Shown here one piece after another: positions 152 to 5,233 of a stretch of DNA of 5,233 nt. The notes under the pieces are model-generated. The model saw only the letters and a program-made list of their open reading frames with translations. It ran no database searches and was not told the DNA's origin. Numbering within the stretch: the stretch's first letter is position 1; each line of letters starts with the position of its first letter. The stretch lies in IMG/VR virus record IMGVR_UViG_2660238548_000009; one strand, written 5' to 3'. The position numbers and the translations under genes are program-made. Source of the stretch: a virus (taxonomy: Duplodnaviria > Heunggongvirae > Uroviricota > Caudoviricetes).

Positions 152-463
152 TTAGGCGGCTGATGTTTCTTCTTTCAGGCTTTCGAGATATTTACGTGGG
201 TCGTCGTAACATTGGCATTCGCTGTACCAATCCACCCAGCGATCAGTAAGCCCCATCTCTGATAAATCTTCATCGGTAAGGCTCTCATCCCACATCTCAA
301 GGCCGTTAGCATTGCAGTAATCAGGCTTGATGTTGTTGTCATACTGAAAGGCGTCATAATCAGCCAGTGCGTCCATCAGACGAACACCCTCTTCAACACT
401 TGCCACTTCTACAATGAACGGCTTCATAGGTACTTGCGGGATATGCCAGACACGTAATTTCAT
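152..463 (-). CDS. Hypothetical 103-aa early-left-operon protein in the position lambda uses for ea10; not homologous to lambda Ea10 as recalled
   Basis: ORF-track frame 152..517; I place the start at the internal ATG 463..461 (MKLRVWHIPQV...) because it has a strong SD GGAGG (complement of 468..472) and the upstream in-frame codons run through a terminator hairpin. Ends ...LKEETSAA, stop TAA. Confidence 0.6.
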   Translation of the reverse strand: MKLRVWHIPQVPMKPFIVEVASVEEGVRLMDALADYDAFQYDNNIKPDYCNANGLEMWDESLTDEDLSEMGLTDRWVDWYSECQCYDDPRKYLESLKEETSAA

Positions 464-475
464 ATATCCTCCGTC

Positions 476-504
476 AAAAAAATTGCCCTCACACTGGAGG
501 GCAA
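476..504 (-). terminator. Intrinsic terminator for leftward transcription (hairpin plus U7), lambda tL2-like position
   Basis: Minus-strand RNA reads UU-GCCCUC-CAGUGU-GAGGGC-AA followed directly by UUUUUUU (complement of A-run 476..482). Core stem 485..490/497..502, extendable by two A-U pairs. Confidence 0.5.
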
Positions 505-565
505 AGAAGATTTCCAATAATCAGAACAAGTCGGCTCCTGTTTAGTTACGAGCGACATTGCTCCG

Positions 566-1135: not shown

Positions 1136-1519
1136 TCACCTCGCCGTCAGTTGTTTGGATTTCCGGTAGCCTGCCGCGTAAATGGCTACGTTTGGAAGAC
1201 ATACACCAGTTTCTGGTTGCTTATGTCCAAACTCATTCGCGTACACAATGGCCGCTCGCTCCAGATTGCGTCTGTATTCTTTCTGTTGCCAGATCACGTC
1301 CTGTGCCATGAACTTAATTGGCTTAGCGTCTTCTATACGCTCAGGCGTTTCGTGAGTACCTTTAGCCTGAATCTGCGCTCTGCTTAGAGTAGGGCGGTGT
1401 AATACTTCTGAACTTATTGCTTCTTCGCGGGCCAGTACGCCGTTAGCTAATGCCTTTACCTTTAAACGCTCACGACGACGAGAACGTGAATTGCCTTTGA
1501 ACTGAGTTCTGCGTGTCAT
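1136..1519 (-). CDS. N: N-type transcription antiterminator, non-lambda specificity (P22/21/H-19B-like)
   Basis: 127-aa product MTRRTQFKGNSRSRRRERLKVKA... has an N-terminal arginine-rich motif typical of N-family proteins. Start ATG 1519..1517 has SD AGGAGG (complement of 1525..1530). The 46 extra upstream codons of ORF 1136..1657 lack an RBS and lie in the PL leader. Sits immediately downstream of PL/OL. Confidence 0.8.
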   Translation of the reverse strand: MTRRTQFKGNSRSRRRERLKVKALANGVLAREEAISSEVLHRPTLSRAQIQAKGTHETPERIEDAKPIKFMAQDVIWQQKEYRRNLERAAIVYANEFGHKQPETGVCLPNVAIYAAGYRKSKQLTAR

Positions 1520-1675
1520 ATAGACCTCCTGATGAACTTTGGTGGTGTGGTAGGTGGGAGACCCATTTCGACCTACTTCAATTCGGCAATAGTCCCGCAG
1601 GCCTCGCCGCTTTACGTGCGACATATTCCCGTCCATGAACCCTTCACCACACCCCAAAGTTCACTTTGGTTATTG

Positions 1676-1820: not shown

Positions 1821-1970
1821 ATCTGTATGTTTTTTATATGAATTTATTTTTTGCAGGGGGGCATTGTTTGGTAGGTGAGAGATCAGAATTGCACTGTTTA
1901 GCAAGTTGTATCTATCAATTTTTCAATAAATACAATGAGTTATGTTTTTTTAGGTGGGGGATCGCGAGGC

Positions 1971-1996
1971 AAAGAAAACCCGGCGCTGAGGCCGGG
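1971..1996 (-). terminator. Intrinsic terminator ending the cI-linked operon (lambda timm-like)
   Basis: Stem CCCGGC (1979..1984) / GCCGGG (1991..1996) with a 6-nt loop. On the minus-strand RNA the hairpin is followed by UUUUCUUU (complement of 1971..1978). It lies immediately after the stop of the 55-aa ORF. Confidence 0.6.
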
Positions 1997-2161
1997 CTAG
2001 ATTTTAAAGTATTTATCTTTTAGAGATGTAGATGTAAAACTTTTCGCCTTTGAAAATTTTTTGTCATCAGAAGGGCTTATGAACTCATCTTTTTTGTAGG
2101 GAACCGCTAATGCTGCATCACGTCTGCGAGGCAGCTTGCTTACTTCCTCGCGCTTTTTCAT
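1997..2161 (-). CDS. Putative small lysine-rich protein (55 aa), not in the supplied ORF track
   Basis: Hand translation of the minus strand from ATG 2161..2159: MKKREEVSKLPRRRDAALAVPYKKDEFISPSDDKKFSKAKSFTSTSLKDKYFKI, stop TAG 1999..1997. The ATG lies 2 nt after the kinase stop (TGA-TC-ATG); weak SD AGGA 9 nt upstream. It fills the whole gap between the kinase and the terminator in AT-rich sequence. Confidence 0.35.
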   Translation of the reverse strand: MKKREEVSKLPRRRDAALAVPYKKDEFISPSDDKKFSKAKSFTSTSLKDKYFKI

Positions 2162-2163
2162 GA

Positions 2164-3210
2164 TCAGTTATCCTTTAATAACCTATACAGTTTTGTAGGG
2201 GTACATCCTGAGGATATTGTTAAGTTCGTAGCACGCCTTTTCCGCCCATCATCGTATAAACGAAAACCAGTAGTAGACGAATTTTCTGCGTCAAAAACTA
2301 TAGACAGTATAGCGTCCCCAGACTTTTTTTGCCATTCGCATGTGCCGTTAGTTGGTTTCGTCATCTGTAGACGCCAGTCAAGAACGCCATCACTTATAGC
2401 TGAGAGATCGTTTAGTACATCTAGTACGGATTGATATCTTTCATTTGGATCTACATGAATGCATTTGTTCACTATTGTTATTAATTTTTTATGTATATGG
2501 GGAGGATACTCTTTTAATGGATAGCAGCCATTAATTATCGACTCTCTGAGTTGTTCAATCGTGCTAAATGCAGATCTTTCTCTTTCAAAATTATCATGTC
2601 CAACACACATTCTATATATGGTTAATCCTGCCTGATATATGTCATATGTGAAATTATAATCATTTGTTGATAAAGAAAAATATTCCGGTGGCACATGAAA
2701 ATGATATCCAAACTCAGGCGCAGCTCTCGATTCCTCATTGACTAACTGAGATAATCCAAAGTCAGATAGCATGGCCTCATTTCTGTTTGATATCATAATG
2801 TTATTAGGTTTTATATCAAAATGCATAAGACCTTTTGAGTGTATATGATAAAGTCCACTTAAAAATTGAATGGAATACCGTATTATCTCCCTGCTTGTAA
2901 GATTATTTTTTTTCATTAATTGGTTTAGCGAACCATTATGATAAAATGGCATGGCTATATAGATATTGCTCTCACATTGAGCAGCATACTGAACTTGCAC
3001 AATATTTGGATGTGCATGTTTATAGAGAAGCCTTGCTTCATTAAAGTAGTCGTCGTGGTTAGTGTTTTCTTTTTTTTCTATTTCTTTAATCACCAAGTCA
3101 TGAGCTAGGTGTCTGTCATGAGCCAGATATACTTTTGAAAAACAACCCTGTTCTTCTAGATCACTAATCCATTCGAATTCTACATCAGCTCTTTTGTATG
3201 GAGTTAGCAT
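2164..3210 (-). CDS. Eukaryotic-like (Hanks-type) Ser/Thr protein kinase, 348 aa, with a roughly 80-aa non-kinase C-terminal extension
   Basis: Kinase subdomain motifs in canonical order: degenerate Gly loop QGCFSKV (res 21-27); VIK with catalytic Lys42 (codon 3085..3087); catalytic loop HFDIKPNN with Asp132 (2815..2817), the D-x-K-x-x-N form typical of Ser/Thr kinases; DFG 150-152 (2755..2763); PPE 174-176; DIYQAG; HVDPNER. SD GGAGG upstream; the start overlaps the stop of the upstream gene. Confidence 0.9.
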   Translation of the reverse strand: MLTPYKRADVEFEWISDLEEQGCFSKVYLAHDRHLAHDLVIKEIEKKENTNHDDYFNEARLLYKHAHPNIVQVQYAAQCESNIYIAMPFYHNGSLNQLMKKNNLTSREIIRYSIQFLSGLYHIHSKGLMHFDIKPNNIMISNRNEAMLSDFGLSQLVNEESRAAPEFGYHFHVPPEYFSLSTNDYNFTYDIYQAGLTIYRMCVGHDNFERERSAFSTIEQLRESIINGCYPLKEYPPHIHKKLITIVNKCIHVDPNERYQSVLDVLNDLSAISDGVLDWRLQMTKPTNGTCEWQKKSGDAILSIVFDAENSSTTGFRLYDDGRKRRATNLTISSGCTPTKLYRLLKDN

Positions 3211-3665
3211 CCCCTTACCTCCGCAGATAGTGCAGCCAAAACAGCTTCATTTGTTTCAGTTGTAAAACCAGAATTATCGATTCCATTTATATTGCGGTGT
3301 GACTTCAATATTTCTTTATACTCGATCTCTGTTAGGTTCAATGATGATTTCATGCCAGATTTTCTAATAGTGTAATATTTTCTTACATCACTGCTTGAAA
3401 ATGCTTCTTGAATAACAGCTTCTATATAAAGGCGGTCAATGCTAAGATTATCAGAGTTTGATTCAGTAACGCGTATGGCAGCTAATTCAACATTATATAA
3501 ATTAAGAATGTCGAGGATGTTATTTCTCACATACTTTAATTTTTCTGGTGTGTCTAAGGTCGAAGGTATTTTAATGACATCAACACATTTGAGTGCAGAC
3601 TCATTAGTGCAATATACAACAAAAGATGTAACTTTGGGCGCCGCTCTAACACCTAGTATTCTCAT
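3204..3665 (-). CDS. Hypothetical 153-aa protein, translationally coupled to the kinase; possible RNase H-like/RuvC-like fold (weak, by eye)
   Basis: ORF-track ORF. Its stop TAA (3206..3204) overlaps the kinase ATG (3210..3208) as ATGCTAA. Segments MRILGVRAAPKVTSFVVY, PEKLKYV...LAAIRV and NEAVLAALSAE resemble the RuvC segments ILGIDPGSRVTGYGV, PSRLKLI...FAIEQV and DAADALAIAI, but Arg sits where the first two catalytic acidic residues would be. Confidence 0.7.
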   Translation of the reverse strand: MRILGVRAAPKVTSFVVYCTNESALKCVDVIKIPSTLDTPEKLKYVRNNILDILNLYNVELAAIRVTESNSDNLSIDRLYIEAVIQEAFSSSDVRKYYTIRKSGMKSSLNLTEIEYKEILKSHRNINGIDNSGFTTETNEAVLAALSAEVRGC

Positions 3666-3716
3666 TTTTTATATCCTATTTTAGAATCAGGCCGCATCTC
3701 TGCGACCATCCATCAT

Positions 3717-3731
3717 CCAAACGTCTCTTCA
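3717..3731. repeat. 15-bp direct repeat, copy 1 (ccaaacgtctcttca), downstream of the 113-aa gene
   Basis: Exact 15-nt match to 4088..4102. On the minus strand it reads TGAAGAGACGTTTGG followed by ATGA, i.e. a copy of the cI C-terminal codons EETFG plus an in-frame stop. Confidence 0.9.
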
Positions 3732-3732
3732 C

Positions 3733-4074
3733 TCATCCGAAGAAGCAGCAATCCGGGTCAGCACGCACAAGCTCAAGCGCATCAGTCAGCGAAAGTTCAG
3801 TACTGTACTGATGCCATTTCATATCCTTCCGCATCCAATAGATTTTCCATCTATCCAGAGAACGTATGTACTTGATTCTTGCTGATGGCAGGATGTTTGT
3901 TTCACCTGGGTTGCCCTGCCACACGGGGCGCTGTTCGCCGATATCTATCGTTTGGTCATTGATGCTATAAACAATATCCAGTTCATTGCGGATATGTTCA
4001 GGCGGCCTTATGCTTTCAATGAATTGGTGAACTTCTTTTTTGACCGCTTGATATTCAAGGTCAGTGAACGCCAT
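3733..4074 (-). CDS. Hypothetical 113-aa protein, first gene downstream of cI (occupies the rexA position)
   Basis: ORF-track ORF. ATG 4074..4072 lies 9 nt after the cI stop with a strong SD GAGGAGGA (complement of 4078..4085) inside the cI 3' end. W/Y-rich (WKIYWMRKDMKWHQY), ends in CCFFG. No motif I can assign. Confidence 0.7.
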   Translation of the reverse strand: MAFTDLEYQAVKKEVHQFIESIRPPEHIRNELDIVYSINDQTIDIGEQRPVWQGNPGETNILPSARIKYIRSLDRWKIYWMRKDMKWHQYSTELSLTDALELVRADPDCCFFG

Positions 4075-4083
4075 CTATCCTCC

Positions 4084-4800
<717 letters not shown>

Positions 4801-4803
4801 TTA

Positions 4804-4832
4804 AATCTATCACCGCAAGGGATAAATATCTA
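4804..4832 (-). promoter_or_regulatory. PRM promoter (-35 TAGATA, -10 TAGATT, 17-bp spacer)
   Basis: Minus strand: TAGATA is the complement of 4827..4832 and TAGATT the complement of 4804..4809. The -10 ends 7 nt before the cI ATG, consistent with a leaderless cI mRNA. Confidence 0.85.
4808..4824. promoter_or_regulatory. Operator OR3
   Basis: TATCACCGCAAGGGATA, identical to lambda OR3 as recalled. Confidence 0.9.
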
Positions 4833-4847
4833 ACACCGTGCGTGTTG
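4831..4847. promoter_or_regulatory. Operator OR2
   Basis: TAACACCGTGCGTGTTG, identical to lambda OR2 as recalled. Confidence 0.9.
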
Positions 4848-4873
4848 ACTATTATACCTCTAGCGGTGATAAT
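4845..4873 (+). promoter_or_regulatory. PR promoter (-35 TTGACT, -10 GATAAT, 17-bp spacer)
   Basis: TTGACT at 4845..4850 and GATAAT at 4868..4873, overlapping OR2/OR1. SD AGGAGG at 4888..4893 precedes cro. Confidence 0.9.
4855..4871. promoter_or_regulatory. Operator OR1 (one substitution relative to lambda)
   Basis: TACCTCTAGCGGTGATA; lambda has TACCTCTGGCGGTGATA. The G-to-A change at 4862 creates CTAG. Confidence 0.85.
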
Positions 4874-4897
4874 GATTGCCTGTACTAAGGAGGTTGT

Positions 4898-5098
4898 ATG
4901 GAACAACGCATAACCCTGAAAGATTATGCAATACGCTTTGGGCAAACCAAGGCGGCTAAAGATCTCGGCGTATATCAAAGCGCGATTAACAAGGCCATTC
5001 ATGCAGGCCGAAAGATTTTTTTAACTATAAACGCTGATGGAAGCGTTTATGCGGAAGAAATAAAGCCCTTCCCAAGTAACAAAAAAACAACTGCATAA
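4898..5098 (+). CDS. cro: Cro repressor, lambda-type (66 aa)
   Basis: [66 protein letters not shown] is near-identical to lambda Cro as recalled (three conservative differences). Sits directly downstream of PR/OR1. Confidence 0.95.
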
Positions 5099-5233
5099 GT
5101 AACACCGTGAGGTGTACTGGCAATAGCGGACACTACCATTTGTTCTTTTTTTAAGCAGCCATCTGATGATATTTTTCCCTGAAGGCTGCCGGGGAGATAT
5201 TCCCCAGACGAGAGTGACGACGCTGACGATTGT

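Follow-up and report, generated by a model that had tools for sequence, protein, structure and literature searches.

The phage-encoded kinase Stk carries a family-private C-terminal domain and belongs to a conserved three-gene module

The window analysed here is a stretch of 5,233 nucleotides (nt) from a virus of the class Caudoviricetes, IMG/VR record IMGVR_UViG_2660238548_000009. It is the immunity-left region of a lambdoid prophage, in which the minus strand carries, in order, cI, a DUF3024 gene, an open reading frame (ORF) of 153 amino acids (aa), a protein kinase gene, an ORF of 54 aa, a terminator, nutL, N and a gp17-type superinfection-exclusion gene, as shown in Table 1. The kinase, which is the subject of this report, is the already characterised Stk of the Shiga-toxin phage 933W, and both the protein and its role in defence are published. 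From cI to the terminator, the gene order (cI, L0084, L0083, stk, L0081, terminator) also matches that of 933W. What is new here is not the gene itself, which is already known, but a C-terminal domain (C-domain) private to the Stk family and a conserved three-gene architecture.

Stk is one of the first kinase-based abortive-infection systems to have been reported, and it is carried by prophages that lie behind the danger of Escherichia coli O157:H7. The primary studies are those of Tyler and Friedman (2004, J Bacteriol 186:3472) and Friedman et al. (2011, Mol Microbiol 82:567). In later papers that cite them, Stk is described as a eukaryote-like tyrosine kinase that has little or no activity in uninfected cells, is activated by infection with phage HK97, and excludes that phage via abortive infection (PMC3681748; PMC6356687; PMC8008677). 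In stable lysogeny, stk is expressed from pRM according to PMC3430580.

Table 1. Features of the window, with the kinase and its module partners listed first (all positions are those of the 5,233-nt window).
Feature	Coordinates	Strand	Details
stk, 348-aa Hanks-type protein kinase	2164..3210, including stop codon	-	BLASTP 348/348 to 933W Stk (AAD25427.1)
Kinase catalytic domain, residues 21-262	2425..3150	-	G22/S25/V27, K42, E58, H130-F131-D132, K134, N137, D150-F-G152, Y169, P175-E176, D190, R258
C-terminal region, residues 263-348	2167..2424	-	End of last kinase helix, LDW linker (W279), four beta-strands 290-326 (W293), terminal helix 338-347
Upstream partner, 153 aa, = 933W L0083	3204..3665	-	Stop overlaps stk start by 7 nt (ATGCTAA)
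Downstream partner, 54 aa, basic, = 933W L0081	1997..2161	-	Starts 2 nt after stk stop; PHROG 4063 match
Intrinsic terminator	1977..1998	-	8-bp stem with 6 G-C pairs, then T run; closes cI-to-L0081 operon
cI repressor, lambda/HK97 immunity type	4084..4797	-	Heads operon expressing cassette in lysogen
DUF3024 gene, 113 aa, = 933W L0084	3733..4074	-	Pfam DUF3024, E = 2.4e-31
N gene	1136..1657	-	Program-listed 173 aa from TTG start; 933W annotation 127 aa
156-aa ORF, = 933W L0079	607..1077	-	PHROG 1636, function unknown
GP17 (superinfection exclusion gene product 17) ORF	152..517	-	Pfam GP17, E = 1.2e-55

Our comparison across genomes indicates that stk lies in the middle of a mobile, translationally coupled module of three genes, the other two of which encode a 153-aa protein and a small basic protein (about 55 aa). 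We examined 91 loci, 80 of them retrieved by means of kinase motifs alone. A homolog of the 153-aa partner lies directly upstream of the kinase on the same strand in all 91, at a gap of -7 to +12 nt, and the C-domain is likewise retained in 91 of 91. Downstream, an ORF of 49-73 aa (counted at a length of at least 35 aa) begins at the kinase stop in 87 of the 91 loci. In the window itself, the GGAGG Shine-Dalgarno sequence for stk lies within the 153-aa gene. An earlier reading of this DNA, made by a model from the letters and their translations (the sequence-only reading), missed that the protein is the known Stk and that two small flanking genes are co-inherited with the kinase, which is never encoded alone in the loci examined.

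The module ranges from Enterobacterales to Bacteroidota and a cyanobacterium, and its surroundings are unrelated from one group to the next. It occurs in a prophage immunity region in Proteus, in an island with Abi_2 and an integrase in Pseudomonas, in a prophage tail region in Acinetobacter, in an element with an LlaJI restriction-modification (R-M) system and ArdA in Elizabethkingia, and in a type I R-M island in Vibrio. Four closer enteric variants have the trio at the same spacing in four different upstream contexts, one of them P2-like, and all four are without DUF3024. Such wholly different flanking genes are typical of a mobile defence module. In the literature searched we found no description of the three-gene module, although the library was limited and this is no proof of absence.

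Upstream ORFs of 152-155 aa from five unrelated contexts are 37-68% identical to the 153-aa ORF of the window, and the ratio of nonsynonymous to synonymous substitution rates (dN/dS) for this partner is 0.06, indicating purifying selection. For the 54-aa gene dN/dS is about 0.32, which again indicates purifying selection and is consistent with coding. Around 83 of the 87 downstream ORFs are united by an N-proximal [ST]-R motif and a C-proximal G-Y-phi-x-phi motif, and their composition is basic. The 54-aa ORF is therefore probably a real third gene of the module. All of the module components co-diverge, with r = 0.73-0.82.

The 153-aa partner is labelled 'RuvC-like' by PHROGs and NCBI. At profile level this label is not supported. 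The window protein scores 14.2 bits against PF02075, for which the cut-off is 22.2 bits, and the 12 of 39 partner members that match Pfam RuvC all do so below threshold (best E = 1.5e-4); NCBIfam models give E = 0.015-0.098, and hhalign a probability of 1.4%. Moreover, all six members aligned with RuvC have arginine at the positions aligned to the catalytic residues D7 and E66, and at least 90% of the sequences in the 39-member alignment have R7 and R65. The name 'DUF3010', which UniRef gives to some homologs, was not reproduced by Pfam scans of the 39 members. The protein has no relative in the Protein Data Bank (PDB) by sequence, and no model in PADLOC. We treat it as a member of an uncharacterised family, whose ancestry is at most RNase H-like in a degenerate form.

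The DUF3024 gene, which lies between cI and the 153-aa gene, was considered as a further member of the module and rejected. It is found beside the kinase in some enteric and Proteus prophages only, and is not beside it in Pseudomonas, Acinetobacter, Elizabethkingia or Vibrio, nor in the four close enteric variants. In PADLOC it matches PDC-S43, a candidate single-gene defence system (E = 7e-42). No mention of DUF3024 was found in the literature searched, and the gene looks like separate cargo that is co-transcribed here.

The catalytic domain of Stk is readily recognised. It matches the Pfam family Pkinase over residues 21-260 (E = 2.2e-46; 158.8 bits against a cut-off of 31.7 bits), and the motifs listed by the sequence-only reading are all present in the order that it gave: QGCFSKV (21-27), VIKE (40-43, with K42), HFDIKPNN (130-137, with D132), DFG (150-152), PPE (174-176), DIYQAG (190-195) and HVDPNER (252-258). 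The same reading had called Stk a non-RD kinase, and indeed the arginine expected before the catalytic aspartate is absent, H130-F131-D132 standing in place of HRD. It had also described the Gly-rich loop as reduced to a single glycine. The loop, E-Q-G-C-F-S-K-V, departs from the canonical GxGxxG and only G22 is kept; however, G22 is the central and most conserved glycine of the motif, so that only the loss of the first glycine is truly unusual. S25 occupies the position of the third glycine, as does the serine in the loop GGMSTV of Staphylococcus aureus PknB (alignment to 4eqm).

A search of 5.8 billion proteins returned 549 relatives at E <= 1e-5. The best 120 of these are nearly all 337-353 aa long, and come from Enterobacterales, Pseudomonas, Acinetobacter, Vibrio and Elizabethkingia; a scan of species-representative genomes adds Alpha- and Betaproteobacteria, many Bacteroidota, an Ignavibacteria genome and a cyanobacterium. 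Among 109 aligned homologs the invariant residues are G22, S25, V27, K42, E58, H130, D132, K134, N137, D150-F-G152, Y169, P175, E176, D190, R258, W279 and W293. At position 131, at least 90% of them have Phe and the remainder Met or Thr. This conservation argues that both the lack of the RD arginine and the xGxxSxV loop belong to the design of an active enzyme throughout the family, and are not the decay of one copy. The sequence-only reading had taken the motifs in their correct order as an argument for an active enzyme. We agree that Stk is very likely to be active, judging from the invariance of every catalytic residue in the 109 homologs and from the activity reported for 933W Stk in PMC3681748.

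The specificity of the enzyme is less straightforward. The catalytic loop HFDIKPNN is of the Ser/Thr type, D-x-K-x-x-N, and has neither of the tyrosine-kinase forms HRDLAARN and HRDLRAAN. Taken together with the tyrosine phosphorylation reported for Stk (PMC3681748 and PMC3430580), this suggests that Stk is probably a dual-specificity kinase. The conserved Y169 (2704..2706, minus strand) lies in the activation segment, seven residues before the glutamate of PPE and at about the place of the P+1-loop Gly-Thr of Ser/Thr kinases. It could be an autophosphorylation site or a determinant of specificity. The loop around it has the lowest confidence in the structural model, with a predicted local distance difference test (pLDDT) score of 65-73.

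The structure of Stk was predicted using AlphaFold2 with a 109-sequence alignment. The full-length model has a pLDDT of 89.9 and a predicted template modelling score (pTM) of 0.90, and for the C-terminal part pLDDT is about 95. Here the model has strands at residues 290-297, 300-307, 312-319 and 324-326 and a helix at 338-347, and a model of the domain alone gives the same fold. In the full-length prediction, the C-domain appears to be rigidly attached to the kinase. The sequence-only reading had placed residues of about 268-348 outside the kinase fold. The coordinates that it gave, 2167..2409, are right for residues 268-348, but the peptide that it quoted, LSAISDG..., begins at residue 269 and not at 268. 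The extra domain itself is real, although according to the model the last kinase helix reaches as far as about residue 270, and the domain proper covers approximately residues 276-348, some 73 residues that fold into a small, compact four-stranded sheet plus the helix. The region is neither disordered nor unconserved: its pLDDT is high, as noted above, and W279 and W293 are among the invariant residues.

The C-domain is private to this family. A sequence-profile search of the PDB aligned solved kinases to Stk only up to residue 272, a Foldseek search of the C-domain against the viral models of BFVD gave nothing below E = 0.05, and neither the PDB nor BFVD contained a convincing fold relative or a functional analogue. 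When a profile of the C-domain was run against 1.84 billion cluster representatives, it found 109 proteins, nearly all of which have the domain at the very end of the chain, the protein being a kinase of some 345 aa or a fragment of such a kinase. Three large proteins (P0194, 3366 aa; P0209, 1242 aa; P0212, 877 aa) gave several marginal, repeated matches to the strand region of the C-domain, with E = 7e-7 to 8e-5; these may be compositional beta-repeat matches or distant relatives of the fold.

The C-domain also evolves differently from the rest of the enzyme. C-domains are 15-27% identical where the kinase cores are about 50% identical, and five enteric variants give dN/dS values of 0.21-0.23 in the C-domain core compared to 0.05-0.06 in the kinase core. 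No part of the enzyme evolves faster than the C-domain, whose rate of change is about four times that of the kinase core, yet it is under purifying selection. A domain that is real, folded, constrained, private to the family and fast-evolving fits a recognition or regulatory role. The C-domain, the non-RD loop and the reduced Gly loop can be regarded as signatures of a whole family, which travels with two small partner genes.

How might these parts work together? The absence of the RD arginine makes it unlikely that Stk is switched on through phosphorylation of its activation loop. The gene sits in the slot that rexAB occupies in lambda downstream of cI, and is transcribed with the repressor in the lysogen. 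Its product is reported to remain nearly inactive until a heterologous phage (HK97) infects, at which point cell proteins are phosphorylated, with tyrosine phosphorylation detected, and the infection is aborted. In the mechanism that we envisage, the switch would probably be an allosteric or partner-release step, involving the binding or release of a protein. The variable C-domain, with one or both of the small partners, would either recognise the phage cue or restrain the kinase until the cue arrives. We consider it likely that the C-domain serves regulation or recognition, as a module that works with the partners. As a fuller but tentative proposal, to which we give rather less than an even chance, Stk would be the catalytic core of a widely distributed, so far undescribed three-component defence module: the 153-aa protein, a degenerate relative of RNase H/RuvC, and the small basic protein of about 55 aa would be needed to silence the kinase, sense the phage, or both, and the C-domain would couple them and, with the small protein, set phage specificity. 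The C-domain and the partners are, in any case, concrete candidates for the missing sensor and regulator.

The sequence-only reading had suggested that the C-terminal extension is a sensor or substrate-docking domain that couples kinase activation to a phage cue. The coupling of the kinase to a phage cue is supported by the reported activation on HK97 infection; the assignment of that function to the C-domain in particular is not: no fold relative gave a functional clue, and the co-evolution test did not single the C-domain out. A sensor or docking role for the C-domain is plausible, and either of the two small partners could equally well, or better, be the sensor, regulator or substrate.

Several observations weigh against the proposal as we have set it out. 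The fold searches supplied no functional analogue of the C-domain. Average dN/dS is below 1 in all regions, with no sign of diversifying selection, and dS is near saturation for several pairs. In a partial Mantel test the C-domain tracks neither partner more closely than the kinase core does; since everything in the module co-diverges, this test cannot tell whether the C-domain contacts a partner. The Ser/Thr-type loop DIKPNN sits oddly with the reported tyrosine specificity. Finally, if stk alone suffices for exclusion, then the partners are modulators of the system and not essential parts of it.

The leading alternative is that the C-domain docks one or both of the co-encoded partners, and not a phage cue. 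One partner would then be an antitoxin-like inhibitor, or the real sensor or substrate, the phage trigger would act on that partner, and the C-domain would do no more than anchor the complex. The strict co-inheritance of both partners and their translational coupling to the kinase speak for this, as do the co-divergence of all parts and the restriction of the C-domain to kinases that have these partners; kinase-based modules of a toxin/antitoxin-like kind are moreover known, for example KKP (PMC11341870). The partial correlation between the C-domain and one partner (A), given the kinase core, is 0.45, which is not above the value of 0.52 for the kinase core and the same partner given the C-domain. 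Docking of a partner is also compatible with the mechanism proposed above and does not exclude it. We regard this alternative as credible but somewhat doubtful. It is unlikely, though by no means negligible, that the C-domain is instead an intramolecular autoinhibitory or stabilising appendage, following a logic like that of the KA1 domain of MARK kinases, in which case it would recognise nothing foreign and its fast evolution would reflect weaker constraint on a small structural domain.

A more radical view is that defence is not the main role of Stk, which would act in host physiology, in virulence or in control of the prophage's own lysogeny, with exclusion of HK97 as a side effect. This would agree with the co-transcription of stk with the repressor, with the fact that KKP controls lysogeny as well as defence (PMC11341870), and with a review that called the impact of Stk on the lysogen unidentified (PMC3430580). 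Against it, homologous three-gene modules are found outside prophages, in defence islands next to Abi_2 and R-M systems; lambda has rexAB in the same slot; Stk has little activity without infection (PMC3681748); and deletion of stk from an etk wzc double-mutant derivative of EDL933 left the attaching and effacing (A/E) lesion phenotype unchanged (PMC3681748, data not shown there). On balance we think this view improbable. Lastly, the single remaining P-loop glycine and the HFD catalytic loop might be taken to indicate a weak or dead pseudokinase acting as a scaffold, but this is extremely improbable given that all of the phosphotransfer residues are invariant, that serine at the third-Gly position is normal in active PknB kinases, and that kinase activity is published for the identical protein (PMC3681748, PMC3430580 and PMC6356687).

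The prophage is a mosaic, as the segments 4075..5233 and 1923..4111 show. Its CI protein shares 100% identity with that of HK97 and 99.2% with that of lambda, and Cro is of the lambda/HK97 type. The cassette from cI to the terminator, in contrast, is 933W-like, with 99.4% identity to 933W DNA over 1923..4111. We note that the immunity type here is that of HK97, in other words of the phage that is reportedly excluded by Stk. Coverage of 80% or more of the window is reached in only 3 of 5426 complete E. coli genomes, whereas the three-gene stretch, 1997..3665, is found at an identity of at least 99.8% in 225 of the 5426 and in 39 phage records. The G+C content is 32-37% in the kinase cassette (2250..3450) but 43-50% in cI and N on either side, as would fit a moron that was gained horizontally. 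The terminator lies at the position equivalent to that of tM as annotated in the 933W record. The real start of N is probably an internal ATG. The GP17 ORF is a second exclusion-type gene, in the early-left region.

Comparison with known systems helps to place the module. The nearest case is 933W itself: the Stk protein is identical, is flanked by the same L0084, L0083, L0081 and terminator, and occupies the same slot downstream of cI. The two differ in that the cassette is joined here to a lambda/HK97-type immunity region, and not to the 933W cI. In the literature searched, 933W Stk is handled as a single gene, and its C-domain and two partners are not discussed.

Among solved structures, the closest sequences are kinases of the PknB/StkP type (PDB 4eqm, 1mru and 9ru3; E = 8e-39), which share with Stk the GxxS Gly loop and the Ser/Thr-type catalytic loop. 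In contrast to Stk, they belong to the RD kinases and carry extracellular sensors such as PASTA domains, and the alignment ends at about residue 272. A functional parallel is provided by Stk2 of Staphylococcus, which is described as a Hanks-type kinase that is activated by phage infection and protects by phosphorylating host proteins with an abortive-infection logic (Depardieu et al., 2016, via PMC9122126 and PMC11341870). Both Stk2 and Stk are thus phage-switched Hanks-type kinases with abortive-infection logic, but Stk2 is described as a host-encoded single locus (PMC11341870), whereas kinases of the Stk family carry a C-domain of their own and come with two obligate neighbours; the comparison is one of descriptions and not of sequences. 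The KKP system of Pf prophages, a prophage-encoded kinase-kinase-phosphatase that forms a toxin/antitoxin-like defence module (PMC11341870), resembles the Stk module in being prophage-encoded, multi-gene and kinase-based. Its partners, a second kinase and a phosphatase, are different, and we detected no homology between them and those of Stk.

Defence catalogues, in which PADLOC lists MAD6, MkoA and PglW among its kinases, match the kinase domain of Stk. The best PADLOC model for PD-T4-6 (Vassallo et al., 2022) matches Stk with E = 1e-37 over residues 20-273 (20-276 for the stronger models), and the PADLOC model mad6 matches the kinase domain at 6.7e-50. The kinase matches in PADLOC span only residues 20 to about 295 of Stk, leaving the core of the C-domain and the partners uncovered, and the scores of Stk against the NCBIfam models for MAD6 and PglW are far below their cut-offs. 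It is only the kinase domain that these catalogues model, which suggests that a three-gene system present in many phyla has been missed.

Finally, the position of the cassette invites comparison with other lambdoid phages. HK97 carries gp48-gp49 at the slot where the Stk cassette sits, and lambda has rexAB. RexAB and Stk are unrelated proteins with different mechanisms; the textbook view of Rex is that it acts by membrane depolarisation. Nevertheless, RexAB is like Stk in its location, with cI on one side and the pL/N region on the other, in its expression together with the repressor in the lysogen, and in its effect, which is to abort the infection when a heterologous phage enters.

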